A stretch of DNA of 63,979 nucleotides, filler included, from Stramenopiles sp. TOSAG23-2 (Eukaryota), in the NCBI GenBank assembly GCA_900128395.1. It is 7 parts of 7 records of this genome, joined end to end, with 100 filler letters (N's around TTAATTAATTAA, not from the genome) between each part and the next. Parts side by side here need not be neighbours in the genome. Positions count along the whole stretch, not along the records: positions 27,699 to 36,810 come from LT650125.1; 6 more parts are not named here. One strand, 5' to 3'. This document shows positions 9,001-55,746 of this stretch, piece by piece (within the stretch, counting starts at the first letter, position 1; the number at the start of each line of letters is the position of its first letter). The notes beneath the pieces are model-generated. The model saw only the letters and a list, made by a program, of their open reading frames with translations. It did not search any database and was not told the DNA's origin. A program made the position numbers and the translations under genes.

Positions 9001-9146
9001 GTTTCATCATCTGCTTTTGTACGGTCACCATCATTTCCACCACTATCACCATTCCAATGAATATCATCATCATTTGATGATATAGCACGTATGGTTCCAG
9101 CTGGACAATTTTTACATTCTAATTTACCAATTTCTTGTTGATACAT
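3..9146 (-). CDS. Giant (>3,040 aa, partial at both ends) cysteine-rich repeat protein (GCC2/GCC3 or ephrin-receptor-like CxxCxxGxYQ...CxxCPxGT repeats) with inserted LamG/ConA-like, fucolectin/F5-8C-like, fibrinogen-C-like and PAN/apple-like modules
   Basis: Manual translation from ATG 9146 gives MYQQEIGKLECKNCPAGTIRA...DCKVCEAGRYQ. The same frame is open at spot checks near 5600 (DCLVCESGKYQ...CKDCPAGT), 4450 (WVLLFRQT), 1130 (SKWIHVVITFEG...FNGNIAFLRIW) and 3-140. Its absence from the ORF track is consistent with no stop before the window edge. Confidence 0.85.
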   Translation of the reverse strand, partial: MYQQEIGKLECKNCPAGTIRAISSNDDDIHWNGDSGGNDGDRTKADDETDCKVCEAGRYQNNERQTDCIDCPAGTRRPSTTGSDGHDWDGSSSGNRNVADTKEDCKVCDSGQYQHENKQTECINCPEGTVRYVDTSDNDVWNGANVLDTFHEFTIGHCEESGGNLISTHTINGPISSYFSDAFQQYVLTATAKCNSDSNCEYVSVWNDGDYRLYKNACTPGYVTKTDSSPPDMSVSEIECERYGTDNSLTWQGNHHVNINNPKGCFTDGSSNIYYNKAATGVTCGGTYTCIENGLSNKVYNEVDVIVDEQNVVWDGIVGYWYPVTYKKILPVAGTSGELGDRLVANTKSDCKVCPSGRYQEEDGLMECKNCPEGTIRYYDKYEDSKRWDSGLSGDQYTATVWEIKNAGQTGYYVESDQNKKCATGTANPPDCSTVDGSGNTCGKMSFDACLDECKLDTNCKYFSFHPDDATDTCILCDVTPTDTWTGSIVYKMGGRPKVNNVQFFTDDTCSDSIPLTSVSNEIVLTSTMISCSTTKSGTTPCATALLSTTNQYWEPSCDPCYVDEAWFKVTFTTSTTVRCIQLSGTHPLGKSEGDTADLIWSGGLHVLNNNGLDQISTNSNRWTGRGIGDRLVADTKADCKVCPSGMYQQEIGKLECKNCPAGTVRQISYGNDDNFWDGDDSGVSGNGVGDRHVADEYSFCTVCPSGKYQHNERGTVCVDCPAGTVRYTSEGHDGTAWDGVTSGNRNVADEKADCKVCPSGMYQHEIGKMSCINCPSGTRRTVSSGNDGARWDGLNGYFNGREQMPHIVVGSIDSFGGASNAGEEAHNAMDNSIDQQYVNNGGVNSGLTLTTNGNPCNKIRLYSGSNYPERDPTEMEVYGSSDSSKPAADGTWAFIGQYTIPAFPGRKASYVIRIGSVVSYVHYKFKFTKLNGPDDSKLQISEIQMFSHEFSVGVHAYHFYATGNCHSDSHAEELNSGNVLFSPDVAIASYFSNQFHDWLELTKGICDLDSDCNYISLQDNGNYKTYKSCDSANMDGSSIYWSGSFVDLNTTYWGGDIVPTGTYYVEQSGVPDLSVSIAECEAISNTFSSSDDWVDRPSGCVVDSSNTYYYNKNINPNECYFNSAYSCIQKTSSKIHYRFPITFEKLALSGTGDRLVAATKADCLVCESGKYQTEEMQTGCKDCPAGTMRAVVESDLKPWDGYGINRFNLATSQRCFGPHHCKNNICVGFEEDSKIYCYGSYDGCLTGASDCSTDIDCVNKYTVNSPKYENLGVVSCPNPGGTWQSDACSCAPQATSSSVEWSGDASKAIDGNHNNGVYENAANGKCAHTQNKHSWIKIELTATKIITEIYLIGRNNPSVPGHYEQSSGWMIKIGDDGDETDTTHAMNVSAYWKSASDHPGIRLFFTGATGKFVQILSKDWIVLCEIEIYGEIYTPIYNNLYNSRCPHNFPFVFSPNNNFSRCCASANDKDGNIGINAHYLKGTRSESCQDDMYTSCSDPPCSDHYTTTSPYGYRSVANEERDCQSCASGQYQNVIGQTICKQCPPGTRRVQNKNQDQQHWNYRWVLLFRQTVLENKNPWDDLYGNGQLSVNPDDPTQSDYSNLGNINDYKNDDGTYHMKILWPMSTTHTGYNEWKQTSNPATSTSVTGYSAIHEDYAGNGWAGLALSGNTNDCLIDGSPGDSSTSYYCLGAYEVGSYPILGPTSDGENQVELWIYTNKFIAIADDSTDCIVCDSGKYQDEEGMTYCKDCPSGTIRQSHTNDLVKWNGVLNVEEDFANEKKDCYVCASGKYQEEHGMTECKNCPAGSIRPVSSGKDGVRWDERGRQEFLFLNTNAGQKCSDTVGYEDIQSPNRCLEAAVALGMDTSKLTYSSDYSPDNGAHAPWGIQVLPSADSTRPSGCYTNNFDAVDANGLHWLKFNPNAGTDTETLIDGAVYYGKYCQRLQTCAQATKNEDISINGFNVYCDVTTDSGHYWRVKLFHPTVATEIDTKEKMIDFCTSRGFTAPGRGVERQEAWLVVKRYLWDTHHPFIEDFPDDQASIILPLWHTYDSSGPINKLESLYLDKSVTLPSNPKGGHCDETNPGQIWCGYWNKNGWEVDDDTYGDPEDFAIGNFRDSTQTYPTYYACMQEDIMLDVNADGASDLDSNLDVSNERADCNVCNSGRYQDEMGEMVCKACPAGTFREIVVGSNGDNSKWVAPWVNNFIADSIADCIICNSGKYQDIPGGTSCKDCEIGRYRHYHYTDGENYNGENGFTGLTADALNDCTICSKGKYMDYTGATECVVCDQGLHLDNDATIVADHVSKTNCLVCNSGKYSYDFHNLAGPFHIRFWRDTLSNNQMYDLSIAEVYAYQNDARIKPQTSSSANLIDQNENSVWTSGYGSTTVQPHATVTYNNMPTKIEVIIRKDSYHHWSHGAKVSVSQNLDGSNALYVNTFGIDSKDVGSRGNVPKIPDHEWEFRRISSATSWTVLDEYDAAIQATSHGSDITALTYESGATFDGSDVYVDVSDWTWGGKMSIETYVKCNDISSKFSVFSFDEGTSKKSTLNFGNDPNAPYVGNTDSTAHLNVFGGNDYHVHKHTTCAGSGAGNENIVKDFFGTIEMCKKKCSSIPDCVGFFQIVEDPNNVETEFDVGECVFQADTLAIDSTATPTRACYERILKEVNVRTDSFWETSKWIHVVITFEGSSIKIYKDKNLFKHLEIGVLPFLTQRTNHHIGRADTTYFNGNIAFLRIWHKTCLNADEISRLFDVRHEKIITYNFHISSNRCDGCLKGRYRAQDPHADGMSYDASNGITGVITDAFNDCQVCPDGQYQNEEGKQACKLCFAGKYQPKRIGWIPILQTDTGTYNINTKGVNDIHLDGRPKYSGFAKLSDEAINNIEHENNPSFYYYKLSTSRISINVGTSPSATSKTIQLMAKGIVCPSTVDKTNWLGSSTASDVFSISISDFVLTVTRGTAWTLDLTIVCDGPETDTLVKTASTVSYNDTVEGYNLHVTDEYESCNLDSIDECETYGGFNPNWFCVNMPIRNQESCFDMAHYDEQNKAWMSDGSRE

Positions 9147-9148
9147 AC

Positions 9149-9248
9149 NNNNNNNNNNNNNNNNNNNNNNNNNNNNNNNNNNNNNNNNNNNNTTAATTAA
9201 TTAANNNNNNNNNNNNNNNNNNNNNNNNNNNNNNNNNNNNNNNNNNNN
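9149..9248. other. Artificial contig linker (N-TTAATTAATTAA-N, six-frame stop)
   Basis: The identical 100-nt spacer recurs six times, and the intervening contigs decrease in length (9137, 9113, 9112, 9087, 9071). Confidence 0.98.
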
Positions 9249-9650
9249 ATGGATTTCAAAATTTGCCGGATCGGGCTTTGCCGGCATGCCGTGGCCACCC
9301 CTGTTGATTGACGCACGCGAATCGAATTCCGATTTCTTTTTTTTTTTGGGAATTTCCAAAGGCCGGCCGGCGGCTCTAAAATAAGTATGAATATTACTAT
9401 ACCAAAACGTAAATAAACTATTTCGAATACGGAATTAGAATAGCATTATATATTCATTGTTAATTTTGATCTTTTTTGATAGGAAGGTTCTCTATCGAAT
9501 TCGCAGAAGAAGAAGACGACACAAGAATTCTTCTTAATAAATTCTAACAAATATATATTGTATTCAATGTTTTATGATACACAAGAGATGTACAACAAGT
9601 AACAACATTTATATAGCTAGTACGACGGAAAGAAACGTGATTGACATAGG

Positions 9651-9886
9651 TTTATATATATATATAATATATAGTTTGATCCATCTGCCGTGTGAAATTT
9701 ATAGATATATATATATAACATATAATATTCATATTTTAGATTATTATTATTAGTCATTCTTCATCTTCTTTATATATATATATAATATATAGTTTGATCC
9801 ATCTGCCGTGTGAAATTTATAGATATATATATATAACATATAATATTCATATTTTAGATTATTATTATTAGTCATTCTTCATCTTC
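9651..9886. repeat. Tandem duplication, 118-bp unit x2
   Basis: AGTTTGATCCATCTGCCGTG... occurs at 9673 and 9791. Confidence 0.9.
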
Positions 9887-10002
9887 AATATTATATTTAT
9901 TGTTATAAAAATATAGTTATCACTTTTTTTACAATATAATACATACGAAACGAAAATAGAATCATACGTATATATATATATATATAAACAAAAAAACAAA
10001 AT

Positions 10003-12246
10003 ATGTTATCTAATTTGTTAAAATTGAAAACCATTACATATGCAAAACAATTAGCACATCGCACATCTCGAAAATCTCGACCATTTATATTTCAACGACA
10101 TATAAGTCGTTTAAGAAATAGGCGTGTAGAAGAGTTGGAAAAAGAAGCAATACAAGATAAGTTAAATCCAGAAGCACAAGCAAAATTTTTAAAAGAGTTA
10201 AATAGAAGTGATCCTCATAGTGTTGTAAAAATTGTTGAAAGTGGGGAAATGCAAGTTGTCGATGAGCAAATTACTTCAGAATACATCAAAGCGCTTGCAC
10301 GAACTGGAAAAATGACACAATCAAATGGAAATAAAGTAGTCAATTTTTTGAAACAAGTCGAGAACGGAGGTGGTGGTGGTGGTGGCTATAATAGTAGTTA
10401 TTTTGGTAGAGGAGGTAGTAGAAGCCAATATGGACGTGCTGGTGGTAGTCGCGCTGCTGGTGCTGGTGGTATAGGTATGAGTCAAGATGCTCCGTTGATC
10501 GTGCAATTTGCTGAACGATCGTTTAAAGACAAGTTAAAAGGTATGTTACCAAATATTATATTAATTGGTGGTTTGATTTATCTTGTAACAAGCGTGATGC
10601 CTAGTCCAGGTAAAAATGGTTCAGGTGGTGGTGGTCCAATGTCATTGCTTAGTGGATCGAAAACATTTGCCCCTGAAATGAGCAATCGTACCTTTGATGA
10701 TGTACAAGGTTGCGAGGAAGCGAAAGATCAATTAGTGGAAATTGTAGAATACTTAAAAGATCCAAGTAAATTTACACGTTTAGGTGGGAAATTACCAAAA
10801 GGTGTATTATTAGCTGGACCGCCTGGAACAGGGAAAACATTATTAGCACGTGCTGTTGCTGGCGAGGCTGGCGTGCCATTTTTTTATGCCTCCGGTGCTG
10901 AATTTGATGAAATGTTTGTTGGTGTTGGTGCCCGTCGTATACGAGATTTGTTTAAAGCTGCAAATGCACAACGTCCAGCAATTATTTTCCTAGATGAAAT
11001 CGATGCAGTTGGACGTAAACGTAGTGGAAAAGTTCAACAACATTTAAATATGACATTGAATCAATTATTAGTGGAACTTGATGGATTTAAAGAAAACAAA
11101 GGGGTAATTGTGATTGCAGCGACAAATTTTGCTGATTCTTTAGATCCTGCATTGGTCCGACCAGGACGTTTCGATCGCCAAATTGCAGTTCCATTGCCAG
11201 ATATACGAGATCGTACGAAAATTATTCAACATTATTTAACCACGATAACGGCAGATCCAGGTATCGAAGCAAGTGTACTTGCAAGGGGAACTCCAGGATT
11301 TTCTGGTGCTGATTTAGCAAATGTATGTAACTTAGCCGCTATTCGTGCATCCGTGTTGGGGAAAAAATGGGTTGATATGAGTGAAATAGAATATGCTAAA
11401 GATAAAATATTAATGGGGGATGAGCGTAAATCTGCATTTATAAGTAAAGAAACGCAAGAGTGTACGGCATATCATGAGAGTGGACATGCCATCGTAGCAA
11501 TTCATACAAAAGGTGCACATCCTGTACATAAAGCTACTATTGTACCACGTGGTAGAGCACTTGGAATGGTGATGCAACTTCCAGAAGGCGATCAAACATC
11601 TGTAACTAAGGAACAATTGTTGGCTAAAATGGATGTTTGTATGGGTGGACGTGTTGCAGAGGAAATTATTTTTGGTGCAGATAAAGTGACTAGTGGTGCA
11701 TCTAGTGATTTTCAACAAGCAACTTCGATAGCACGAAATATGGTAATGGCATATGGTATGGTAGATGAAATTGGCATCATGCGTTATAGTGACCATGATT
11801 TAAAAGAATTAGCACCAGAAACAAGAAAATTAATTGATGATCAAATTAAACGTTTGTTAAATGAAAGTTATGCACGTGCGAAAAAATGTTTATTGAAACA
11901 TGCAAAAGATCATCATAAATTAGCAAAAGCATTGATTGATTATGAATCATTAACTGGTGATGAAATACGTGATTATTTAAAGGGTAAACCGCTGGTTCAA
12001 TTAACCAGAGAAGAGAAACGGAAAAAAGAATTAGCTGATTTAAAGGAACAATTGAAGAAAGAAAAAAAAGAAAAATTGTTACAGCAACAACAAGCAGCTG
12101 CGTTGGCAGCTAAAAATAAAGGTGGTGAAGAAGGTGGTGAAGGTGGTGATAATGGTAGTAATGATGGTGGTGGTGATACAAAGAATGATAAAACAAAAGA
12201 TGGATTGCCAATTAGTGGTGATGTTTCTCGTAATGAGAAACATTAA
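10003..12246 (+). CDS. YME1: Mitochondrial i-AAA protease (YME1/FtsH4-type ATP-dependent zinc metalloprotease)
   Basis: Walker A GPPGTGKT, Walker [29 protein letters not shown] zinc motif, TSGASSD, a single TM segment and a basic N-terminal presequence. Confidence 0.93.
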
Positions 12247-14456: not shown

Positions 14457-16241
14457 CTATTTAATTTTCCTATAAGTTGAATCATAATTATTATTTGTAT
14501 GCATAACGTTATTATTATTAACATCATATTTCGTATGCGTAGTTTCCCATCTCATAGATCCATCTTTTGTTATTATATCCGATGCTTGATCTAATAATTC
14601 AGCATTATTGTCAAAACCAATCATATTATATTGTATAGCGTTTTTTGTAAATGTACCTTTTAATATAATTTTAGAAAAAGATTGTGTTGCGTTAAAATTG
14701 GCTTTACAAACAAGATTATTGTATTTCCTTTCATTATCACGTGTAGCTAACAATTGCTTGTTGTTATTACAATGAAATACAGCACATGTTTCTACTAAAA
14801 GGGTTATGTTTTTTCCACCAACATGTCTATTCTTGTATGTATATAATCCTTTGCTTCCAAACAATACATATGTTCCGTGATTATTATTATTATTATTATT
14901 ATTATTACGATATTTTTTATTCAGAAACATTCCTTCTATAGAACAAGTAAAATTTGTATTTGGGAGTGTCATTTTATAATTAATATCATAATTATCATTC
15001 AACTTGTTCTTATTATTACCATCATCATCAAGAAATGGAATACAATAACCCGATTTAATAAGACTGGTTGAATCATATTGGCATGGTATCATATTATTCA
15101 TTGTTGTCGTTTCTTGTAGAATATCAACGTTGTTATCAATCTTGCCAATACTATTGTTATTATTATTATTATTATTATTAATACGATTGACATCCTCATC
15201 ATCATCAACTTGTATATTTTTTGAAATATTTGCAACCATGTAAGTATCTTGATTAAATGTTGAACTATTATAATGTGATTTCAATACATTTCCATTTTCA
15301 TACATACCACTGCCAGAATTTAAATAACTTGCACCTGTGTTTGCAGCTAAAAGGACGCTTTTAAATTTGCGTGAAAATGCTTGTTGAAACATCGTTGCAG
15401 TAAATATAGGTTCAGAATTATACCACCATGTTGAAAATAGAAAATGTTGAATACCTTGATTTAATAAATTTTGAATTGGATGCATAAATGTTATATCGAA
15501 ACATATGAAAATACCAAATGCTACACCGAATGATGAATTAAATGAAACAACTTCTGGTTTTAATGGATAATTTAAAATTGGATAGGTTCCAAATAAATGA
15601 TATTTATGATATATAGCAGCAATTTTTCCACCATTTTGTCCATCAATGACAACATCTGTATTATATTGATAACGTCCATCTAATGGGCAATTGATATCAC
15701 CCGCTGTACGATTACATTTACGAATATCTATTGTATTTATAACAATTGTTATTTTATATTTAATTGACATACAGCTGATATGCTTGGAGATGGAAAATGT
15801 ACCATCTTGTGGTCTGGTATTATCATTGCATGGGATTGATTCAACTGGTGGCAAAGATTCGCCATATGATTGTATTAAATCTCTTGGAGTGATGGATGAA
15901 TTTGGTAATGAGATTAAACCATATGTCCATAATACTGCTTCTGGGAAAATAATAATATCAGCATTATCAATATTAGATGCACGTGCAACATATTCTTCAA
16001 TAGCTATCATACTTTGTTTTACATTTTTTGTTGGAGATGATGAAAATGATCCACGGGGATAAAATTCAACCACTGCTGCTGTATAATAAGTTTTATCATC
16101 TTGTTCCATTGAGTTTTCAATCTTATTGGTGGTTTTTTTATGGATGGTGGATAATACAACTTGAATATTATTAATATTTAATAATATCAATAATAATAAT
16201 ATAACAACATTTATTTTTGCAGGACATTTACAATAATACAT
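14457..16241 (-). CDS. Secreted vanin/biotinidase/pantetheinase-family nitrilase-superfamily hydrolase
   Basis: Hydrophobic signal after ATG 16241, YYTAAVVEF, catalytic triad contexts IIFPE / YHKYHLF / ICFDI, and YQYNTDVV. The longer ORF-track start runs through the upstream duplication. Confidence 0.88.
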   Translation of the reverse strand: MYYCKCPAKINVVILLLLILLNINNIQVVLSTIHKKTTNKIENSMEQDDKTYYTAAVVEFYPRGSFSSSPTKNVKQSMIAIEEYVARASNIDNADIIIFPEAVLWTYGLISLPNSSITPRDLIQSYGESLPPVESIPCNDNTRPQDGTFSISKHISCMSIKYKITIVINTIDIRKCNRTAGDINCPLDGRYQYNTDVVIDGQNGGKIAAIYHKYHLFGTYPILNYPLKPEVVSFNSSFGVAFGIFICFDITFMHPIQNLLNQGIQHFLFSTWWYNSEPIFTATMFQQAFSRKFKSVLLAANTGASYLNSGSGMYENGNVLKSHYNSSTFNQDTYMVANISKNIQVDDDEDVNRINNNNNNNNNSIGKIDNNVDILQETTTMNNMIPCQYDSTSLIKSGYCIPFLDDDGNNKNKLNDNYDINYKMTLPNTNFTCSIEGMFLNKKYRNNNNNNNNNHGTYVLFGSKGLYTYKNRHVGGKNITLLVETCAVFHCNNNKQLLATRDNERKYNNLVCKANFNATQSFSKIILKGTFTKNAIQYNMIGFDNNAELLDQASDIITKDGSMRWETTHTKYDVNNNNVMHTNNNYDSTYRKIK

Positions 16242-16431
16242 CGTTGATCTTTGTTGAATTATTGAATATTTGTTGCTATCATATATAATAATATATATAT
16301 ACATATCTTCCTCGTATATGTAATTTGCAGGACATTTACAATAATACATCGTTGATCTTTGTTGAATTATTGAATATTTGTTGCTATCATATATAATAAT
16401 ATATATATACATATCTTCCTCGTATATGTAA
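16216..16431. repeat. Perfect tandem duplication, 108-bp unit x2, covering the vanin start codon
   Basis: TTTGCAGGACATTTAC... occurs at 16216 and 16324. Confidence 0.9.
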
Positions 16432-16979: not shown

Positions 16980-17210
16980 AAGATTATAATTTTCAAAAAT
17001 GACATCATTGTTTTTAGAGGCACTAAAAAATAGTAATAATAATAATAATAATTCCTCCAACAACAATAATAATAATAATAATAATAACAATCCAAGATTA
17101 TAATTTTCAAAAATGACATCATTGTTTTTAGAGGCACTAAAAAATAGTAATAATAATAATAATAATTCCTCCAACAACAATAATAATAATAATAATAATA
17201 ATAACAATCC
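16980..17210. repeat. Tandem duplication, ~114-bp unit x2, covering the WD40 gene start
   Basis: AAGATTATAATTTTCAAAAATGACATC occurs at 16980 and 17094. The first copy gives a short MTSLFLEALK...PRL* ORF. Confidence 0.88.
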
Positions 17211-18385: not shown

Positions 18386-18485
18386 NNNNNNNNNNNNNNN
18401 NNNNNNNNNNNNNNNNNNNNNNNNNNNNNTTAATTAATTAANNNNNNNNNNNNNNNNNNNNNNNNNNNNNNNNNNNNNNNNNNNN
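18386..18485. other. Artificial contig linker
   Basis: N-TTAATTAATTAA-N spacer. Confidence 0.98.
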
Positions 18486-26583: not shown

Positions 26584-27381
26584 TTAATCATTTAAATCAC
26601 CATTACCTTCTCCTACGCTTCTACCATTTTCATCATAATAGTTTGCTTTTCCACCTTTTAAACGTAAAAGTGCAATGATCTCTTGGCGAATTGGACTATC
26701 ATTACAATATGCATGGTCCAGGTTAGTGTATCCCAACCTGTTCTTCTTATTAATATTATCAAGAGACATATGAGTTAGTAACAATTGAATCAACTCAGTA
26801 TTTGTTCTGTTAAAACCTGCTGCAAAATGTAATGCATTCCATCCATAACTATCTGCAATATTAGGATCAGCTTCACCTTGCTCAATTAAATATTCAACTA
26901 CTTGGAAATGTTCGTTCCTTGCAGCTAACATTAAAGGTGTACGTTTATAACCACTACTGTCTTTACCGACTTGATTCACCATTTCTTTCACTGTCATATT
27001 ACCTTCTTTCACACCGTTCATTTCAATATATTTATGAAAATGATGTAAATTTACAAATGATAACACATCATTCATACGACCTTCTTCACATGCACATATC
27101 AATCCTATTCTCCCTTGAAACTCATTTCCATACCTTCGATATAGCTCATACAACTGTTTTGGTTTACTTATCGCTTCACTTACACACTCATTAAAACTTG
27201 CATGTCCTAAATTTTTCACTAAACAAGACTCACTCATTTTTAAAATAGATTTAACTTTTAAAAATTTTAAAATATTTTTAAACAAACCTGGTATACCACA
27301 TACATCGTATATGTTTTTAATTTCATCATCGTCGTCTTCATCCTTCACCTCCTTCCGTTGTTTTGTATTTCTTGACGCCAT
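26584..27381 (-). CDS. Ankyrin-repeat protein with possible F-box-like N-terminus
   Basis: KRTPLMLAARNEHFQVVEYLIEQGEADPN and YGWNALHFAA. The N-terminal IPGLFKNILKFLKVKSILKMSESC resembles an F-box. Confidence 0.85.
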   Translation of the reverse strand: MASRNTKQRKEVKDEDDDDEIKNIYDVCGIPGLFKNILKFLKVKSILKMSESCLVKNLGHASFNECVSEAISKPKQLYELYRRYGNEFQGRIGLICACEEGRMNDVLSFVNLHHFHKYIEMNGVKEGNMTVKEMVNQVGKDSSGYKRTPLMLAARNEHFQVVEYLIEQGEADPNIADSYGWNALHFAAGFNRTNTELIQLLLTHMSLDNINKKNRLGYTNLDHAYCNDSPIRQEIIALLRLKGGKANYYDENGRSVGEGNGDLND

Positions 27382-27598
27382 CTTGTATATATATATATAT
27401 ATATCTTGTGTTATCTACAGTTCAACATTATTCTATTTCATATATATATTCTTAGTTCAAATTCAAAGGAACGACTATAAATACCACTTTTATGGATAAT
27501 AATAATGGAACCGATTATAGGAGGATATCATATTAGCACATTATATCATAACTTTTTTTCAGAATATCATTAATATAAAAGTCAATTTATTCAAATAT

Positions 27599-27698
27599 NN
27601 NNNNNNNNNNNNNNNNNNNNNNNNNNNNNNNNNNNNNNNNNNTTAATTAATTAANNNNNNNNNNNNNNNNNNNNNNNNNNNNNNNNNNNNNNNNNNNN
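27599..27698. other. Artificial contig linker
   Basis: N-TTAATTAATTAA-N spacer. Confidence 0.98.
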
Positions 27699-28014
27699 AG
27701 TACTTAAAATTATAGTATGGAGATTTTTTGTTATTTTCTATAGTAATGATAATTGTCCCTATGAAGTTTTTTTAATATATGGAAATAGCATTATAAAAAT
27801 AGCATGGACAGACGCCTTTCAACATTTTACACTTGAAAAGTGTGTTTTTCTGCCATGTTTTCTGTTTTTCATTTCCTATCATATTTATACTTAATATAGT
27901 CCTTTTCATATACTCAGTAGATTTGTAGTGTTTGATATATTTGATAGGCTATATCAGGTGTTTTTTGTACTTGAGAGATTAGAATTAGGAAATATAATTA
28001 ATGAAATTAATAAA

Positions 28015-28263
28015 TTAATCAAATTCCAATGGTTTTAAAAAGCTTTCACTCAAAACGTCAGGTTCCTCAGTACTATTAAACTCTAAACTGCCATTTAATG
28101 CGTTATCATAAGTAATAGGTGGCGGTGGCGGCGGAGGTGGAACTTGTGACTGATGATATTGCTGACTTTGTTGAGATTGTTGTTGGTTGTAAAATTGTGG
28201 TTGCTGTTGTTGTGGATATTGTTGATAGCCAAACTGTTGTTGTTGCTGCTGTAAGCCACACAT
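28015..28263 (-). pseudogene. Gln/Pro-rich coding remnant (3' end of a degenerate or spliced gene)
   Basis: QQQQQQFGYQQYPQQQQPQ...PPPPPPPP followed by an acidic tail. There is no ATG start, and upstream frames contain stops. Confidence 0.4.
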
Positions 28264-28970
28264 GCCACAGTAAATACTACGAGTCCCGTGTATTGAAATA
28301 TGTACGAAGTACGTCGTACTTCGTAAGTAATACTACATAACACACACCACACAATTTCAATCTACCAAACCTGTATTCATTGATTTGACAAAATTGTTTA
28401 ACAAGGTTGGGTCTTTTGATTTATGGGGAGACTGAAACAGTTTGCGTTGCAACTACTAAATCATCATATCCACCATGGCCGTAAATTTATAGAAGAGGGA
28501 TATAAAATATAAAAAGTACAAAAATATACGATAAAAAAGAGTATAATTAAAATATTAAATGTGTCACGGTTTGGTACATCGTGTCATATTTTCTTTTTCG
28601 AGATATGCTCTCTCTCTTGCCAGCTTGCTGCTCCGATTTTTAAACAAAACTCTTTTCCTTTTGTGTGTCTTTTTTCAATTTTTATATGTATTTGAAGTAG
28701 AAATTTTTCATCTTTTTTGTGTATTTGGTAAAAAATCATCGTGTGAACGAATGATAGTTTAACACTGCACTGCTTTTGCACATGAAAATGATTTCACTAA
28801 TAATTTCTCTCTGTTACTTTTTGATGGGCTGCAAACATCAAGTTGGTTTGTTCATAATGTTCGAAACGAAAAAATTTGCAAAATGAATTTAATATTTGCA
28901 TTCGCAAATCAAAACACATTCTCAACGGGAAATCCTGATCAGCCCACCAGTTGATGCGTTTAGTGACGCA

Positions 28971-29216
28971 TCATGGAGTTGGCGCCGCACAAGGAATTGC
29001 GCAGATGGTAAACGCCACCTGAACTTCGCATTCCATCACGCAAAGCAGATATGCTGGCCCTGATATGGTACATCCTGCTATGCACGACGCAGAAGCTGCG
29101 GTTATGCAGGCAGCACAAGCAATGGGCCCGGCTTCGGCATGTTCGCAACACAAAATGCCGAGCAACAACATGATAACCATCATGGTAAATAATTGTTTTC
29201 TACAAAACGATTTCAT
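28971..29216 (-). CDS. Small secreted Cys/Ala-rich peptide (mature GPIAC...CAAPTP)
   Basis: Signal peptide ending AEA|GP, 8 Cys in a 52-aa mature part, elevated GC, and a long A-rich leader upstream of the ATG. Confidence 0.75.
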   Translation of the reverse strand: MKSFCRKQLFTMMVIMLLLGILCCEHAEAGPIACAACITAASASCIAGCTISGPAYLLCVMECEVQVAFTICAIPCAAPTP

Positions 29217-29515
29217 ATTTTATTTTTTTTTAACTGTTTTTGTTTTTTATATATAAACTTTGTTGCTCTTTTGTTTTTTTTGTCTTTTGTTTTTTTTTGT
29301 TTTTTGTTTTTTGTTTTTTTGTTTTATTTATTTTCTATTATACGTGTGTTTCTATTTACGAATGTTTTTTATGTTATTTTTTTTGTCAAGGTATATGTTC
29401 ATGCTATTAAGCTCTGTAAAAATAAAAAGCCACAAGCCACAGTAGCACAGTACGTAGTAATAATAAAATTGAAAAAAAGTAGAGCATAATTAGAAGTGAG
29501 GGTCAAAAAAATGAT

Positions 29516-29875
29516 GATATTTTTGAGATTAAATTTTCACATCAATATCGCGTTCCTAATGCTATTGCCTAGGTAGAGGATGCGAGATGCGAATTTTGCC
29601 ATCCGAACAACTTCATATAGGAGATATCATGGGTTTATGTACAATATACTCTTACACTAAAGTTATTATTGTAGATTTAGATTCCTCGCTAATCGCTTAG
29701 TATACTGTTGTAGCGGATTCGGATCCTTCTTTAGTGTAAGAGTATATTGTACATAAACCCATGATCTCTCCTATATGAAGTTGTTCGGATGGCAAAATTC
29801 GCATCTCGCATCCTTTACCAAGGCAATAGCATTAGGAACGCGATATTGATGTGTAAATTTAATCTCAAAAATATC
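29516..29875. repeat. Large inverted repeat: 147-bp arms (29516-29662 and 29729-29875), 66-bp spacer, 4 mismatches
   Basis: Direct base-by-base comparison of the arms. A weaker outer extension pairs AAGTGAGGGTCAAAAAAATGAT with ATCATTTTTGTGACCTACACTT. Confidence 0.97.
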
Positions 29876-30102
29876 CAAAGTATGGAATCATTTTTGTGAC
29901 CTACACTTTATACACATATAAATAACATTATTACTAATTGAGCCAAAATTACAAATAAAATATGCACATAAAAATTACCATAATACAAATAACAAATATA
30001 TAATAGATAATATTTAGTTGCAAAAAAGAAGAAGAAAAAAGAAAGAAGAAAAGAAAGAAATCTATATTGAAATGCATATAATCATTAACAAAACAAAACA
30101 AA

Positions 30103-32853
30103 ATGAATAAAAATCTTATAATTCTTATCACAATCATTGGTGTTATATGCCAATTTGGAGGCGAAGAAGTAAACGCTTTCAGTGTTACACGCAAAAATGT
30201 AACTCTAAAATTACGCGCCGTTGAAAGAACTCCGCTAGCACCAGTAAGTGATGTTGCATGCAACATCAGTGACCATGGAAAAGCCAAAGCGTTGGTCACT
30301 GTTAAACACAAAGCGTTATCGCCAGATATCTGTAGCGATATTGTCCTATCGAAGGGGAACGCAGTGCCTGGGTGTTGGAGCTATGTTGGATTGAGCGCTG
30401 AGCAATATTTGTATTGGAATTCTATTATGGGTATAAATGACCCTGATGTTGGCATAGTGGTTGATAGTATCAGTTTTGAATTCCTTCATCAATACTTAAC
30501 TTTTATGAAGGTCTGCATAGTTGGAGTTCTTCAAATATTTGTTGAACTGGCGTATCTTTTATATACAAGTTTCAAAATGCTCTGCATTATAGCTGGTTTG
30601 CATTACCTTGCAGAATTTTCGTTAAAGAAAAGGGAAAATAAAAATTTAAAGTCGTTGGTAAGATCTGTCGGAGTAAATACAATGACATGTGAAATGGTAC
30701 AGATTCATGACATTGAATCTCTATGTGCAAGCGACCAAACAATCACTAACGAAGAAAAAATGGGTTTCTTTGAAAAAGCAGCAAATGAAATGCCTAGATC
30801 TGTGAGGCACGACTTGGAATTAAATCCACAATTCGCACAATGTGTTGACAGCCATGGTTGGAGTGCATTGCATTATTGTGCAGCGTTCAATAATAAGCGC
30901 AATTTGGATACAATGAAAGTATTACTGGAATATATACCACCGGAGGAGATTAATCGTAAGACTACTGCAATATTGAGTCATGGTGAAACAGCAGTAGATG
31001 TAGCCTATCGGCTCAACAAGAGTAATATGCGTAATTCTATTATTAAATTATTACGTTGGAAAGGCGGGAAAGCAAATTGGCGCGATGAAAAGGGCAATAA
31101 TGTTGGTTTGTTTGGCACAGGTGAGCTTGGAAAATCCATGAAAACGGAACGCGGAAAATACGAGAATGAACATGGTTTGCAGATTTTTATACGAAGAGGG
31201 TCTGGAAAATCAAAGAGGATTGATGCAGCACCCACCGATATGGTACGCGATATAAAGGCTAAATATACTGCCGCAACAGATGCGCTTGGTAAACCAATAT
31301 TTCCAGTAACGGCCCAAAATGTGGAAGATAACACTGATAAATATACTGGTACTAATGATGGTAGTACGTCAATATTAACGGCAAAAACCGTAACTGTGGA
31401 AGACAATAAGGCGTGTTCAACTCCATCAGTTTCAGCCGTACCAATATCCGCAATCCGGTTATCATACAACGGCAAAGAATTGGATGATAATCGCACACTT
31501 AGTGATTACAACATCCAAAATTATTCAACACTGGAAGCAAGTTTTGGTGGTTTGAATGGTGGTATGAGCGTAACAAGAGCAGCATCAACAACTGTTGGTG
31601 CACTTTGTAGTAGTATTACTACGTTCTTGGAAGTAAATGCAAATTTTCTCTGGTCAAGTGCACCTAGTGTCCTTGCGTTCGTGGCCTCACCAGCAGGAAT
31701 GGTGATTATCCTGGCCCTTGTAACAGGTTCATGGTCTGGTTACATAATAGGAGTGCACCTTGATAACCTCATAGGTTACAACTGCCCATTGTTGATAAAG
31801 GTATTTATTGGTATATTAGGTGGTTTGATATGTGGCTTATCGAGCTCAATCATTTACGCCAATTACTTTTTCGGCATGGTGGTAGAAGCTACAAAATGGG
31901 GCGCTCTGAAATTTTGGTTTCATGCCATTTTCATCTATACAAGAAACAAGACTAACCAGGAGCCAGGCTCAGCCCCAAACAAGGCTTTAACTAAAGTTAC
32001 TGAAGCAGAAGTTGAGGGAATACTCCAGGATACATTTGTTGCGCAGGAAGGCGCCAAGAAGAAATTACGAGAAATTATAGCAGCTCCTTTTTTGGATAAA
32101 CTCCGGGGAAGTGGTACAGGAGGGTGTAAAACGTTCAAGCACTATGTCTTCCAAGGACCGCCAGGTACTGGAAAGACATCATTTGCTAAATTTCTTTGTG
32201 AAATTTTGTGGTCATTTGACTGCTTGGAATCCAACAGATTTCGGATAGTCAACCGAGAGAACCTAGTGGGAACACACGTTGGACATACAGAGGATATTAC
32301 AGGAAAAGTCCTTGACAGCGTTAGAGGTGGGGCACTTATAGTCGATGAAGCCCATAAACTGACCGATGTTGGTGGAATGGGAATTGATTTTGGCAGAATT
32401 GCACTAAGTGTCTTAATGAACGCCATGACACTGAATCAGTGCACAATAATTTTGGTAGGATATACTACTGAAATGCAGCGTTTGCTAAACGCTGATGATG
32501 GGTTGAAGCGCCGCATTAACAACATCATCACGTTTATCAATTACTCAGTTGAAGAACTTGTTGAAATTTTCCTCGTGAAAATCAAAACAATGAGAATCAA
32601 TGGTCATAGTTATAATCTTGGTTTCAACTCTCACGTGTTGAATCGCCATATTGAAAAAACTAGCGAAGTAGTACGTAACCTTTTCAATGGAGGTTTAGCA
32701 ACCAAAGTTTTGAAAAATGCTGTTTCAAAACTAAACATACGACTGAAAGAGGAGTTTAGTGACTCCATGCCCAGTCGTGAACAATTGCACACTATCACAG
32801 AAGATGATATTGGTGCTGCGTTCCAAGATCTTCGCACTCAGTATGAAAGGTAG
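30103..32853 (+). CDS. Multidomain protein: signal peptide, TM, ankyrin, ubiquitin-like (ending LNGG), multi-TM, SpoVK/CbxX(CfxQ)-type AAA+ ATPase
   Basis: GWSALHYCAA/GETAVDVA ankyrin; LQIFIRR...RLSYNGKELDDNRTLSDYNIQ...LNGG ubiquitin-like; [46 protein letters not shown] and YSVEELVEIF AAA motifs. Confidence 0.88.
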   Translation: MNKNLIILITIIGVICQFGGEEVNAFSVTRKNVTLKLRAVERTPLAPVSDVACNISDHGKAKALVTVKHKALSPDICSDIVLSKGNAVPGCWSYVGLSAEQYLYWNSIMGINDPDVGIVVDSISFEFLHQYLTFMKVCIVGVLQIFVELAYLLYTSFKMLCIIAGLHYLAEFSLKKRENKNLKSLVRSVGVNTMTCEMVQIHDIESLCASDQTITNEEKMGFFEKAANEMPRSVRHDLELNPQFAQCVDSHGWSALHYCAAFNNKRNLDTMKVLLEYIPPEEINRKTTAILSHGETAVDVAYRLNKSNMRNSIIKLLRWKGGKANWRDEKGNNVGLFGTGELGKSMKTERGKYENEHGLQIFIRRGSGKSKRIDAAPTDMVRDIKAKYTAATDALGKPIFPVTAQNVEDNTDKYTGTNDGSTSILTAKTVTVEDNKACSTPSVSAVPISAIRLSYNGKELDDNRTLSDYNIQNYSTLEASFGGLNGGMSVTRAASTTVGALCSSITTFLEVNANFLWSSAPSVLAFVASPAGMVIILALVTGSWSGYIIGVHLDNLIGYNCPLLIKVFIGILGGLICGLSSSIIYANYFFGMVVEATKWGALKFWFHAIFIYTRNKTNQEPGSAPNKALTKVTEAEVEGILQDTFVAQEGAKKKLREIIAAPFLDKLRGSGTGGCKTFKHYVFQGPPGTGKTSFAKFLCEILWSFDCLESNRFRIVNRENLVGTHVGHTEDITGKVLDSVRGGALIVDEAHKLTDVGGMGIDFGRIALSVLMNAMTLNQCTIILVGYTTEMQRLLNADDGLKRRINNIITFINYSVEELVEIFLVKIKTMRINGHSYNLGFNSHVLNRHIEKTSEVVRNLFNGGLATKVLKNAVSKLNIRLKEEFSDSMPSREQLHTITEDDIGAAFQDLRTQYER

Positions 32854-33182
32854 TGACGATGATTGCTTGATTTACCAAGAAATTTTACGGAACATGCAGT
32901 TATATTACGCAAACTATAACGCGGTTGCGAAAATGGAAGTTGAGCGCAACGAATATGTAAAATTATAAATTTTACACAAGACACCAAGCCTAATAATATC
33001 ATATATGTCAATTATCCCTGTGTCCAAATGACAATTGAATTATATATGGTTCCTGAAGTTACAAGTGAAATAATTTCATCACTATGATGAGTTCTACTGA
33101 AACCGATATGCGCAATAAATAAAATATTCCTACTTCAATTTTTTACAAAGAATATATATATTCGGTATAAAAATATTAAAAA

Positions 33183-33484
33183 AACACAAAAAATATAGAA
33201 AAAGTGTTGCAAAAAAAGCGCGTGTGTATTATATGTGTTTTTCTCTTACTCATATGTTATATAGAATTCTTTTACTCCCGTTTATTAACCTCTCAAATCA
33301 AAAATGATTTATAAATTTTAGTAAAAATTATTTAACACAAAAAATATAGAAAAAGTGTTGCAAAAAAAGCGCGTGTGTATTATATGTGTTTTTCTCTTAC
33401 TCATATGTTATATAGAATTCTTTTACTCCCGTTTATTAACCTCTCAAATCAAAAATGATTTATAAATTTTAGTAAAAATTATTT
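33183..33484. repeat. Perfect tandem duplication, 151-bp unit x2
   Basis: GTGTTGCAAAAAAAGCGCGTG occurs at 33204 and 33355. Confidence 0.9.
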
Positions 33485-33704
33485 GTGTATTATATATAAT
33501 ATTATATTTTAAAAAATAAATTTTTTACGAAGTACCTAGAAAAATAGTGTAACACAAATAAAATATTACACGTACATCAGTACATCATACAAACTTTCAA
33601 AAATATTATTTTTAATATGATCATAATATAATTTTGAAATTATTTAATCATATATTATTCTCCATAAATTTTTAAATCCTCTGTATTTCTTTTTTCTTTT
33701 TTTT

Positions 33705-33967
33705 AAATTTTACGCATAATTTATTTTTAATTTACTCATGATAATTCCTACTCTTCAAAAGAATAAAATAACTGAAATAATCTATCTCACACAAGTGTGT
33801 TGATATTCTCATAATCGAAAATACCAATGAAGGTATAAATTTTACGCATAATTTATTTTTAATTTACTCATGATAATTCCTACTCTTCAAAAGAATAAAA
33901 TAACTGAAATAATCTATCTCACACTAATGTGTTGATATTCTTACAATCGAGAACACCAATGAAGGTA
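33705..33967. repeat. Diverged tandem duplication, 132-bp unit x2
   Basis: TACGCATAATTTATTTTT occurs at 33711 and 33843. The 3' thirds differ by several substitutions. Confidence 0.88.
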
Positions 33968-34187
33968 AATAGATGGTATCAACTACTCATAATAGCTATT
34001 TTTTTTTTTTTTTACCTTTCTTTTTTTTACGAGGCATATCTGCATGTAAGGTACCTCTTGTTTTTTCTAGCCTTTCTCCTTTGTCCTTATCTTTATTAAA
34101 AAGTGTTTGCTTAGATTGGCCTAACATCATCCTTGTTGTCTCTTGAATACCATTTGTATCAAAAATTTGCTGTTTCACCTTCATTTT

Positions 34188-35612
34188 TTAAATTTTTTTT
34201 GTGGCTTTGAAGAAGTTGTGGCTTTGAAGAAGTTTATCTAGGTATGCTTCTTCTGCTTCTATCCAAGAAGCACCCATAGAATTATTATTTTCCGTTGATT
34301 CTGTCTTTGCAATTTTTCGTATTGATTTACTTTGCTTCTCATATTCATTTTTACGTATTTCTGAATCTTGTCTATGATTTTCATCAACACCGTACTCTGT
34401 ATCCGTCCATATACTATGATATAGCCCATCTTTTATTGGTTTATCTACTACCCCAACAAATAATTTTGCACGTGTAATAGCACGATATATAGATGCTTTA
34501 ATTTTGTCAAGTACAAGCTCGTCAATGTTAATAATATCTATTTCTTTATCAAAACCCACAACAATTGCTGCATCGTATTCTAAACCATCTTGATTCGAAA
34601 TTGTATCAACAACTAGTTGTACTGATGTATGTTTTAATTGTGGAAACATACCAAACATTGTTTCTGCATTTACAATCTTAAAACTGTGACGATAGTCTCT
34701 TTCATTTAAAATGCTGCCTATCTTTTCAGAAAATTGATCAATTTGCAAATTTTTACTATCATCAGGCAAAATAATCACAACACGACCATCACTTAAACCA
34801 TTCCATCCACCATCATAATTGTCGCCAGAGTTTTTAAAATGAATTAATGCATCAACCGTTTTCAAAGCATACTGTGTAATATCATCTATAGACGGTTTAA
34901 AAAAGATTCTGTTATATATAAAATCGAGAAACGAAATACTACTACTACTACTACTATCATCTATACCATTATCTTCATCAGAATTGATAATCAAAAATGG
35001 TTTAATGGGACTTCCAAATTTCTTCTTTTTGCATGCTGGTTTATCATCATTTTTTCTGAATAAATGAGATCCCAAGGCAATTACTTGTGTTGAACGCACT
35101 ACATCACGAAGTTCAATTAGAAAAACTTCTTCATCACTTTTCAATGCATCGTTTATTGCATTATTAATCTTTTGTATTGCAGATGGTCCTTGATTATCAT
35201 CAGAAAGTATTACACGTTGTTTTGCATCTTCAAAATGCCTTAATATTCGTCTCCATGTCTTATCATTTGCGTCTTCAAAATACTGTAATATTCGTCTCCA
35301 TGTCTTATCATTTTCACGAACAATATGATGCGCTTCATCAATTACGACTAAATCATAGTTATGGATGGTTTCATCAATAGGTACAAATTTTAAATATACA
35401 TTCCTCTGATCGTCGATTTGAAGTGTTGCTTTTTGTGGATGATCTCCTGTCTTTCTTGTACAAAAATGTATACGATTTAAAATCGATTCTGGATCATGTT
35501 GTATTTGAGGTGTGTCATTATTATTATCATTCTCTTCTCCTTTGGTCTCACCACTTAATAAACCTTGTATTTTTTTTACTCTTACATTTAATTTTTCAAT
35601 AATGATATCCAA
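34188..35612 (-). CDS. SF1 (UvrD/Schlafen-DUF2075-like) helicase C-terminal part lacking Walker A, possibly a pseudogene or chimera
   Basis: [11 protein letters not shown] (motif II), ILSDDNQ (III), LRDVVRST (IV), [18 protein letters not shown] (V), IYRAITRAK (VI). No GxxGxGKT upstream. Internal 45-bp duplication [15 protein letters not shown] x2. Confidence 0.7.
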
Positions 35613-36064
35613 TGAAGAAACTGTAGATTTATCACTTTTATATGTTTGTTTTAAATTAGACAGACCTTTTATACAATTATTTATTTCAGATGTATATGTT
35701 AATAATATTGTCGAATTTTCTTCCTTAAAGTTTTACTAACACTTACAATATCTGTGTAATATTCATTTTCTAAATTAGTTTCATTTTTATAAATACTATC
35801 AATAGATTTAAATACATTAGATACAAAATTCTCTAAATTCTTTATAGTAGAATTTCTAGATTCATTATTCCACCATCTGGCGCCACTGGTTACATATGAA
35901 GCTTCATCTATAAAAAATTTACCTTCTAAAAAACTTATTTTTTGTCCTATTTGTAATGCGGATAATATTTTTAAATTAGCTAAACAATTATCATTTAATT
36001 TTTCGAAACTACTATTATTTTCATTATTTTTGTTTTCATTAACTTTCCTCGATTCATGGTGCAA
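35550..36064 (-). pseudogene. Giant-virus (NCLDV)-like hypothetical protein gene, interrupted by a -1 frameshift near 35732
   Basis: NLKILSALQIGQKI...FFID...ARWWNNESRNSTIKNL, continuing in the -1 frame as EENSTILL...[31 protein letters not shown]. This matches a pattern I recall from Mimiviridae/phycodnavirus hypotheticals; not verified by search. Confidence 0.6.
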
Positions 36065-36359
36065 ATCATAATAATATTGTGAGTGTAGGAAAAAATGAAA
36101 TTATGAATCAGATGTGCAACATCATGCACACATGTGCACATGTTGGAGGAGTATTGAATTCTGGAATTCATTGAAGGAGGTGGGTTTAAAAATTAAAAAA
36201 GTCTAGGACCTAGATTATTAGCAGTGCGAGTCGTTTAATATGTAAAAAGACGTTTAATAATATGTAAAAACAGTGATATTCAATGCTATTTTTATATTTA
36301 TAATTGTTGTATTCTAATTACCCCTTTTAAGTATAATTATGAATATTTTGATAGGTATT

Positions 36360-36810
36360 TCAGTGATTTGCATTTTCCCATTTTCTTGCATATGTGCTAA
36401 GATATCTCCACCCTTCCACTTGTTGATACCCGTTTGATCCATCTCTTTTATATTGTTGTATAGCTTTTAATTGTGATTTCATATTATCACTAAGTGGATT
36501 ATTATCTAGGTACAATGTCTTTAATGTATTATTTGTTTTCAATGCATCAATAATACTTTGTATTCCACTATCATCAGTAATATTATTATTATTTAGTTCC
36601 AAGTGCTTTAATGTACTGTTTATTTTTAATGCTTCACCAATACTTTGTACATCAGTAATATTATTATTATCTAGGTGCAAGTACGTTAATGTATTGTTTA
36701 TTTTTAATCCTTCAACAATACTTTGTACATCAGTAATATTATTATTATTTAGGCTCAATGACGTTAATGTATTGTTTGTTTTTAATCCTTCACCAATACT
36801 TTGTACATCA
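36360..36810 (-). CDS. Leucine-rich-repeat protein (RI/NLRC3-like 26-aa repeats), 5' truncated at contig end
   Basis: Repeats of SIxExLKxNxTLxxLxLxNNNITDVQ with a 78-bp period run into the linker. Confidence 0.85.
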
Positions 36811-36910
36811 NNNNNNNNNNNNNNNNNNNNNNNNNNNNNNNNNNNNNNNNNNNNTTAATTAATTAANNNNNNNNNNNNNNNNNNNNNNNNNNNNNNNNNN
36901 NNNNNNNNNN
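36811..36910. other. Artificial contig linker
   Basis: N-TTAATTAATTAA-N spacer. Confidence 0.98.
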
Positions 36911-45997: not shown

Positions 45998-46097
45998 NNN
46001 NNNNNNNNNNNNNNNNNNNNNNNNNNNNNNNNNNNNNNNNNTTAATTAATTAANNNNNNNNNNNNNNNNNNNNNNNNNNNNNNNNNNNNNNNNNNNN
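45998..46097. other. Artificial contig linker
   Basis: N-TTAATTAATTAA-N spacer. Confidence 0.98.
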
Positions 46098-55168: not shown

Positions 55169-55268
55169 NNNNNNNNNNNNNNNNNNNNNNNNNNNNNNNN
55201 NNNNNNNNNNNNTTAATTAATTAANNNNNNNNNNNNNNNNNNNNNNNNNNNNNNNNNNNNNNNNNNNN
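55169..55268. other. Artificial contig linker
   Basis: N-TTAATTAATTAA-N spacer. Confidence 0.98.
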
Positions 55269-55420: not shown

Positions 55421-55746
55421 ATACACACAAATAATTTAATTATATTAAACCCTCTTCATCATCATCATCTTCACTTGTCGATTGTTGAACAACATCGTTA
55501 AAGTCTTGTGGAGAAAACAATGCTTTCTCAGCTTGCTGTAATGCACGTTTTGAATATTCAGATAAAAAACTTAATGTTGCATTATACACACAAATAATTT
55601 AATTATATTAAACCCTCTTCATCATCATCATCTTCACTTGTCGATTGTTGAACAACATCGTTAAAGTCTTGTGGAGAAAACAATGCTTTCTCAGCTTGCT
55701 GTAATGCACGTTTTGAATATTCAGATAAAAAACTTAATGTTGCATT
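55421..55746. repeat. Perfect tandem duplication, 163-bp unit x2, copying the 3' end of the 792-aa gene
   Basis: ATACACACAAATAATTTAATTATATTAAACCC occurs at 55421 and 55584. Confidence 0.9.

Follow-up and report, generated by a model that had tools for sequence, protein, structure and literature searches.

A locus in the genome of Stramenopiles sp. TOSAG23-2 (GenBank assembly GCA_900128395.1) raises the question of whether two genes that face outward from a near-perfect palindrome form one functional cassette or became neighbors by chance. The stretch of DNA analyzed (hereafter the window; 63,979 nt) consists of seven parts of seven records joined end to end, among which positions 27,699–36,810 come from LT650125.1; parts that stand side by side in the window may not be neighbors in the genome. 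The two open reading frames (ORFs) concerned encode 81 amino acids (aa) at 28971–29216 on the minus strand and 916 aa at 30103–32853 on the plus strand, and the 886 bp between their start codons (ATGs) lie within the limit of a divergent pair (<1 kb). The smaller ORF appears to encode the precursor of a small cysteine-rich peptide and the larger one a probable membrane-anchored AAA+ ATPase. We assign a probability of roughly 0.55 to the reading that these are two unrelated, lineage-restricted divergent neighbors in a compact AT-rich genome, and that the palindrome arose recently by inverted duplication of an intergenic segment with about 35% GC, apparently in a single copy, and does not form the center of a conserved cassette.

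Each gene has relatives in other places, and where the surroundings of these relatives could be compared, neither the partner gene nor the repeat accompanies them. The comparison covered two contexts, namely L001, a contig of 6777 nt that carries the only close relative of the large gene, and a locus from virus-like contigs that carries a homolog of the peptide. The pairing of the peptide with a ubiquitin–transmembrane–AAA gene and the palindrome are absent from both. The first-pass annotation had suggested that the locus may co-express a secreted effector with a membrane AAA+ partner; the co-occurrence check of both genes gave zero of two contexts, and a co-functioning, palindrome-centered cassette is not supported. 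The claim rests on adjacency in one genome. The portions of the literature that were covered describe neither this architecture nor this peptide family, nor any such palindrome flanked by divergent genes.

For the large protein, 56 matches were found, and only its own public model (P0001) and one other protein (P0002) exceeded 32% coverage; the remaining matches share the AAA module at 24–38% identity. A search among shorter proteins added three matches (29–38%), none of them closer. P0002 is encoded on L001, where the full ORF has 907 aa and a signal-like start, and P0063 from an independent contig represents the same 907-aa protein. DNA similarity between the two loci begins inside the coding region, where position 3690 of L001 corresponds to position 30739 of the window (92%, from about codon 213), and continues past the stop codon into at least 1.1 kb of the 3′ flank (80–93%). 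The N-terminal 200–212 aa or so of the window protein show no similarity to those of L001 (202 aa there), and the hydrophobic region at about aa 493–615 is nearly invariant between the two. A contig of sequencing run X2 (30599–31113) bridges the breakpoint at 30739 and P0063 confirms the L001 form, so both junction forms are real. The family thus retains an ankyrin–ubiquitin–transmembrane–AAA body and exchanges its N-terminal signal/membrane module. This domain order was seen in only one protein besides that of the window. On L001, including the 3 kb upstream of the gene, inverted repeats do not exceed 45 nt (71%), and no peptide homolog was found on this contig (best tblastn E value of 0.43). 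The first 78 nt of L001 match window positions 36413–36490, which belong to a leucine-rich-repeat (LRR) ORF, with 98.7% identity in inverted orientation. L001 either is an allele that has been rearranged or represents a paralogous locus with another member of an LRR family.

The second context derives from two IMG/VR contigs (115 and 160 kb), each with a gene for an 83-aa homolog of the peptide (37% identity, full length). The 20-kb loci around this homolog (L003 and L004) are 100% identical and were therefore counted as one context. Among the 16 ORFs scanned in L004, six have Pfam families (DUF72, DUF1647, ceramidase, Erv1/Alr with a Pox_E10 match, Lon protease, and a dihydroorotate-dehydrogenase fragment), a gene content that would fit a giant virus as the bearer of the peptide gene. 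No ubiquitin–transmembrane–AAA gene lies within the 10 kb on either side of the viral homolog, and the only match of the large protein to this locus covers 60 aa of the Lon P-loop. In addition, a tblastx comparison of L004 with the window found nothing at 1e-6.

The gap between the two window genes contains an imperfect inverted repeat at 29494–29908, with the left arm at 29494–29662, a spacer of 66 nt at 29663–29728, and the right arm at 29729–29908. The repeat search recovered core arms of 147 nt (29516–29662 and 29729–29875) that are 97% complementary, 66 nt apart, and interrupted by four mismatched pairs (29537/29854, 29571/29820, 29576/29815, and 29625/29766). The near-perfect 147-nt palindrome and the outward-facing ORFs on the minus and plus strands thus stand as first annotated. 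In a gapped alignment, the outer ~22 nt also pair across one 11-nt indel in the right arm, for a total span of 415 bases. The longest exact inverted match within 27000–35000 is 48 nt, compared with 12–18 nt in all 20 shuffles, and the predicted fold of the repeat strand reaches −276.7 kcal/mol, compared with −90.4 ± 5.3 kcal/mol in shuffled sequences (0 of 100 as low). Across the whole window, inverted pairs of at least 60 nt number three, and the other two are 60–62 nt long with 70–71% complementarity. An Rfam scan over 28500–30300 returned only MIR475 at 40.5 bits (threshold of 70), which reflects the hairpin shape and was rejected. A bacterial-type promoter scan, a type irrelevant to a eukaryote, gave 5 sites compared with an expectation of 6.7 ± 2.8.

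On both sides, the repeat is bordered by AT-rich DNA. The region upstream of the peptide gene (29217–29493, minus strand) has a GC content of 0.217 and 53% A overall on the sense strand, and the region upstream of the large gene (29909–30102, plus strand) has a GC content of 0.186 and 58% A. The A-rich leaders reported earlier are evident in both, with 75% A at 29217–29340 and 61% A at 30000–30102 on the respective sense strands.

Support for the palindrome comes from the contigs of runs X1 and X2, which represent two samples of one organism from one study and were compared as contigs, not as raw reads; X1 may itself be the source of the assembly. The share of sampled words from the stretch that are present is 0.92 for X1 and 0.72 for X2. 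No contig spans the repeat, since assembly by de Bruijn graph necessarily splits contigs within an inverted repeat this close to perfect. However, the spacer with 30 nt of each arm (29633–29758, 126 nt) is present in contigs of both runs, and so are pieces that lead from the unique left flank into the left arm (29428–29567 in X1 and 29390–29562 in X2) and pieces of the right arm (29729–29853 in X1 and 29729–30018 in X2, the latter continuing into the right flank), all with zero differences. Both partners of the T/T mismatch 29537/29854 are covered in X2, which shows that the difference between the arms is real within a single sample. In a chimera newly formed during amplification, the two arms would be identical, and a second sample would not contain it again. 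The palindrome is therefore genomic, and the first annotation was right on this point. The segment 29568–29632 lacks contig cover in any run.

Coverage of the genes themselves is uneven. A contig of X1 (28851–29432) matches the peptide gene with zero differences; the peptide gene has no contig cover in X2, X3, or X12, and the repeat has none in X3 or X12, which says nothing either way. Contigs of X3, a run labelled marine metagenome, match 30114–30660 and 32670–32882, with five of six pieces at 99% or more, so the organism or a near twin occurs in that sample. In the oligo-dT RNA run X12, a contig of 245 nt is identical to 32268–32512 in the AAA part. This match is a hint of transcription of the AAA gene in nature, and carried-over DNA also fits. 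RNA contigs were found over neither the peptide gene nor the gap, and T-rich matches of X12 at 29211–29252 were discarded as low-complexity noise.

The inverted repeat is a young event, because its core arms differ at 4 of 147 positions compared with the 17–20% divergence of intergenic DNA between the window and L001 (80–83% alike). A 27-nt core of the arm had zero exact matches in viral_contigs. Within the same 64 kb, six two-copy tandem duplications with periods of 108–163 nt were observed, mostly in AT-rich intergenic DNA (9651–9900, 16216–16431, 16980–17201, 33183–33484, 33704–33967, and 55421–55746). Four of the six are 100% identical between copies and the others 95–96%. The 132-nt unit at 33704–33967 is also present in two copies in L001, so these duplications are natural features; a 151-nt unit seemingly has one copy there. 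These patterns suggest that short local duplication is frequent in this genome. An occasional inverted duplication is to be expected, since intergenic pieces of ~100–160 nt are often duplicated in tandem, and local template switching would be its most likely origin. A promoter effect of the repeat on both genes is possible.

Several observations weigh against the interpretation as chance neighbors with a local inverted duplication. The absence of the pairing rests on two contexts, which is weak evidence even if both point the same way, and L001 may be a paralogue and not the orthologous locus. The viral homolog is itself divergently paired: in L004, the peptide gene (9995–10246, plus strand) lies 171 bp from an ORF of 394 aa (8639–9823, minus strand). 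This ORF has no Pfam family, and its GC content at third codon positions (GC3) is 0.489, compared with 0.19–0.25 in four other ORFs of that locus. The first annotation had described both window genes as more GC-rich than their neighbors, which holds at third codon positions: the peptide gene has a GC3 of 0.463 and the large gene one of 0.347, compared with 0.172–0.297 in 13 other ORFs of the window. Similarly, the L001 copy of the large gene has a GC3 of 0.389, compared with 0.227–0.309 for its neighbors. Both a common foreign origin and the codon bias of well-expressed genes fit the raised values. Moreover, the repeat has a GC content of 0.352, compared with 0.19–0.22 in the two flanks, and sits near the middle of the gap, with its center 479.5 and 407.5 nt from the two ATGs; GC-richness and a central position are what a functional element would look like. 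Finally, three of the mismatched left-arm positions (29571, 29576, and 29625) are outside contig cover.

Among the alternatives, the repeat may be a foldback element or one resembling a miniature inverted-repeat transposable element (MITE) that was inserted by chance. This explanation addresses only how the repeat arose and does not conflict with the absence of a cassette. Such elements share with the window repeat the long inverted arms, the short unique spacer, and the intergenic location; a GC content unlike that of the flanks, the low divergence of the arms, and the absence of the repeat from L001 would also agree with a mobile origin. However, no target-site duplication was found at either boundary, as the flanks ...CATAATTAG and TATACACAT... 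have no direct repeat in common. Furthermore, no second copy of an arm was found in the window (64 kb), L001 (6.8 kb), or L004 (20 kb), and at the outer edge of the repeat the X1 and X2 contigs lead from flank to arm without a break in the graph, with none continuing from the repeat into unlike sequence or other flanks. All of these points are weak, and diverged copies would share no 31-mers. We consider a mobile element unlikely.

The second alternative is a functional cassette, in which the palindrome would act as a bidirectional promoter or other regulatory element of symmetric form that co-expresses both genes, and the AAA+ protein would export, process, or sense the peptide or provide immunity to it. 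The divergent genes share a gap of 886 bp, which is shorter than 1 kb as in bidirectional promoters, and the repeat sits near the center of this gap; both genes face the same arm sequence in the same orientation. In addition, the repeat is GC-richer than its flanks, GC3 is raised in both genes, and both products begin with signal-like segments. The similarity that had been noted between the two signal-peptide ends amounts only to the generic rule of small residues at positions −1 and −3. Because the N-terminal module of the large gene is unique to the window copy, a copy-specific partner is conceivable. Against these points stands the absence of the pairing from both other contexts. The repeat is also young (4 mismatches in 147 nt) compared with gene families whose members are 37–65% identical, a near-perfect inverted repeat of 415 bp is no usual part of bidirectional promoters, and the sole RNA contig falls in the AAA part with none for the peptide gene. 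ATPases of the SpoVK/EccA/CbbX type are not known as peptide exporters. A functional cassette is thus improbable.

Third, both genes and the repeat between them may have arrived together from a giant virus or another foreign donor. The suspicion of a virus-derived module, which had been raised earlier, has one part that holds, namely the giant-virus-like member of the peptide family on contigs that also encode Erv1/Alr (Pox_E10) and Lon. The raised GC3 of both window genes and the nearest relatives of the AAA module, which are mostly bacterial or environmental, would also agree with an import. For the large gene, however, its ankyrin module has a paralogue with host-like GC3 in the window itself. 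A stand-alone ankyrin ORF of 276 aa at 26584–27414 on the minus strand (Ank_2, 72 bits; GC3 of 0.224), which serves as context and is not part of the pair, lies 2.7 kb away on the opposite strand and on the other side of the palindrome. Its C-terminal 110 aa match the ankyrin module with 41% identity over 117 aa (E value of 4e-19), and the similarity includes a non-repeat tail (LLR.KGGKAN..DE.G..VG). Because of this paralogue, the protein comparison argues for assembly of the large gene in the host lineage, not for import as a module. The large protein also has no close relative in the viral_contigs set or in the 20-kb viral locus. Furthermore, 9 of the 13 neighboring ORFs have Pfam families (ankyrin, Rrp5 twice, ResIII, LRR, FtsH, aldo-keto reductase, CN hydrolase, and WD40), all of cellular types; surroundings such as Rrp5, FtsH, aldo-keto reductase, and WD40 are cellular housekeeping genes, and no viral hallmark gene was found among the 13. 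Only one viral lineage carries the peptide (two loci, 100% identical over 20 kb), and transfer from host to virus is equally possible. A joint arrival from a virus or another donor is therefore highly improbable.

A more elaborate scenario would combine parts of the above: the mirror-image duplicated promoter would jointly control a giant-virus-related secreted peptide with eight cysteines and a copy-specific membrane AAA+ protein whose variable, outward-facing N-terminal module matches the peptide as receptor to signal or immunity to toxin, and the Gly-Gly-Met junction of the ubiquitin-derived domain would release the ATPase half on activation. A complex prediction with aa 26–130 and the mature peptide gave no answer (score of 0.00, without controls) and is evidence neither way. 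This scenario is speculative, and we regard it as more improbable still. An assembly or whole-genome-amplification artifact is scarcely credible: although multiple-displacement amplification is known to generate inverted chimeras and the supporting runs are small (~17–21 million contig letters) and from one study, the same center and arm–flank pieces occur in two samples, the arms differ by four substitutions and an 11-nt indel, and the non-complementary T/T pair was found on both arms in X2.

On the reading of two unrelated neighbors, each gene is of interest in its own right. The 81-aa precursor has its stop codon at 28971–28973 (minus strand). The exact sequence is absent from the predicted proteins, so the gene is unannotated, and the ORF has no match in Pfam or NCBIfam. 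A phmmer search against 1.84 billion representatives returned six matches at E values of 0.001 or less, five of which are proteins of 77–109 aa with 40–64% identity. The sixth (P0060), a repeat protein of 293 aa that was matched six times over query positions 54–78, was judged compositional and excluded from the family. A profile search gave 22 clusters at E values of 0.01 or less, all environmental and none functionally named, and the family alignment comprises 23 sequences. In this alignment, the N-terminal ~29 residues are variable and hydrophobic, and conservation starts sharply at AGP. Nine residues are invariant (G30, C34, C49, C59, C63, C72, C76, P79, and P81) and eight are nearly so (P31, A35, C37, T39, A43, C45, L57, and E64); all members end at P-x-P, three of them with 0–2 extra residues. 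The conservation pattern indicates that the 81-aa ORF is a real gene. A variable hydrophobic N-terminus followed by sharp conservation points to a cleaved signal peptide (aa 1–29; 29130–29216, minus strand) and a mature product of 52 aa (aa 30–81; 28974–29129, minus strand). The mature part has eight cysteines and is very hydrophobic and Ala-rich.

An AlphaFold2 (AF2) model built from eight sequences has helices at 29–46, 54–68, and 73–77, with a block-mean predicted local distance difference test (pLDDT) score of 85–90 for residues 31–70. In the model, facing Cx3C pairs suggest a disulfide-stapled hairpin. Foldseek searches with this model against PDB and BFVD gave zero matches at E values of 0.001 or less, and in the ESM Atlas the best score was 0.80, a level that shuffled proteins reach one third of the time. 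Pfam scans of all 23 members returned cysteine-pattern noise only (Prok-RING_2 in 3 of 23, best E value of 2.3e-4). With its predicted helix-turn-helix and the motifs C45x3C49, C59x3C63, and C72x3C76, the peptide is presumably comparable to the plant alpha-hairpinins and the twin-Cx3C small Tim proteins, a likeness that comes without a sequence or fold match. It differs from both in that it has eight cysteines and a signal peptide, and in that its mature part is strongly hydrophobic and rich in Ala. The precursor would enter the endoplasmic reticulum, where the signal peptide would be cut before Gly30. The hydrophobic product of 52 aa would then fold as a helical hairpin in which CxxC/Cx3C pairs can form up to four disulfides, and it would be secreted or kept on the membrane.

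The 916-aa protein begins with a variable N-terminal module (aa 1–212; 30103–30738, plus strand), for which a hydrophobicity scan indicates a signal-like segment at aa 5–23, a cysteine-bearing part of ~100 aa, and a hydrophobic segment at aa 131–164. In the region 30103–30250, the public model P0001 (876 aa) differs, as it uses another ATG and a predicted intron and loses the signal-like N-terminus. We favor the long ORF, since the relative on L001 also starts with a signal-like segment. Next comes an ankyrin-type module (aa 226–342; 30778–31128, plus strand). Of the domain labels given at first, ubiquitin and AAA exceed their Pfam cut-offs, whereas the ankyrin label falls below (Ank_2 18.1 bits for a cut-off of 27.3; Ank 17.6 bits for a cut-off of 21.1) and is backed by the paralogue described above.

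The ubiquitin-derived domain (aa 359–487; 31177–31563, plus strand) scores 37.5 bits with the Pfam ubiquitin profile (PF00240; cut-off of 25.4) over profile positions 33–66 only, and aligns to polyubiquitin in two pieces (ubiquitin 1–30 and 10–76), with G486-G487-M488 at the unit junction. It consists of a start like ubiquitin 1–30 (LQIF...), three internal repeats of ~26 aa, and an end like ubiquitin 40–76 (GKELDDNRTLSDYNIQNYSTLE...LNGG), followed by Met488. The internal repeats are visible in the DNA as repeats D13 and D16, and the domain is kept in L001. Residues aligned to I44, H68, V70, R72, and R74 (ubiquitin numbering) are changed. As in natural ubiquitin fusions (polyubiquitin and ubiquitin–ribosomal protein), Gly-Gly is followed by the Met of the next part; unlike in these fusions, the ubiquitin unit is internal, contains three repeats of ~26 aa, and has the residues listed above changed. 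Cleavage at the Gly-Gly-Met junction, which the term polyprotein in the first annotation would imply, is conceivable by analogy, since the domain ends like a polyubiquitin unit junction, but doubtful, since changes affect the very positions of the tail and surface by which deubiquitinases recognize ubiquitin.

A hydrophobic, probably multi-pass membrane region follows at aa ~493–615 (31579–31947, plus strand; segments 518–553 and 556–586). A full-length AF2 model from a three-sequence alignment was unusable (mean pLDDT of 29.8), and its membrane helices are not trusted. The AAA+ ATPase module (aa 644–903; 32032–32811, plus strand), of SpoVK/EccA/CbbX type by Pfam and NCBIfam, scores 44.6 bits with Pfam AAA (PF00004; cut-off of 21.2) and contains Walker A (GPPGTGKT, 685–692) and Walker B (LIVDE, 745–749), both invariant in the three aligned sequences. 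AAA_lid_6 (PF17866) reaches 19.9 bits at aa 845–903 (cut-off of 24.3); in the precomputed Pfam annotation it is absent for P0001 and P0002 and present for most distant matches. The NCBIfam profiles are matched at full length with scores far below their equivalog cut-offs (SpoVK 120.5 vs. 422.95, EccA 117 vs. 466.65, and CbbX 97.4 vs. 459.25), and the nearest solved relatives are EccA1 (8.4e-23) and CbbX (1.8e-20). The profile scores thus place the module in the same type as SpoVK, EccA, and CbbX, but as a member of none of the three. It shares with this group the single AAA+ module with both Walker motifs (SpoVK profile positions 7–261 of 261). In contrast to them, it is fused to an N-terminal array of signal peptide, membrane segments, ankyrin module, and ubiquitin-derived domain, and has no more than 38% identity to any other protein outside its own family. 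The protein would be a membrane-anchored AAA+ machine whose ATPase ring remodels a protein substrate.

The value of this locus may thus lie in its parts, namely the peptide family and the module-swapped ATPase, and not in a system or in the palindrome. The peptides of about 52 aa with eight cysteines form an unnamed, tightly conserved hydrophobic family common to a eukaryotic microbe and a giant-virus-like contig, which makes them candidates for gene exchange between host and virus and possibly for a new membrane-active or signaling peptide. The large gene appears to encode a membrane-anchored ATPase of SpoVK/EccA/CbbX type with a captured and internally expanded ubiquitin unit, in an order found in two proteins only, and the wholesale N-terminal swap between its two copies illustrates gene building by module exchange. 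Together with the six tandem duplications of the same size, the palindrome suggests that short local duplications arise readily in this genome. Should the repeat turn out to drive both genes, it would offer a clear natural example of how an inverted duplication can give rise to a promoter.

Other features of the window concern its ends and joints. Runs of N occur as 44-nt pairs about every 9.2 kb (9149–9248, 18386–18485, 27599–27698, 36811–36910, 45998–46097, and 55169–55268), and a further run of 699 nt lies at 59030–59728; these look like masking, not biology. An apparent palindrome at the pair 27599–27698, 1.3 kb from the peptide gene, derives from the N's and was rejected as spurious. Finally, an open frame of at least 3066 aa runs off the window at 3–9200 on the minus strand and contains about nine diverged copies of a cysteine-coding unit of ~113 nt (families D1 and D4).

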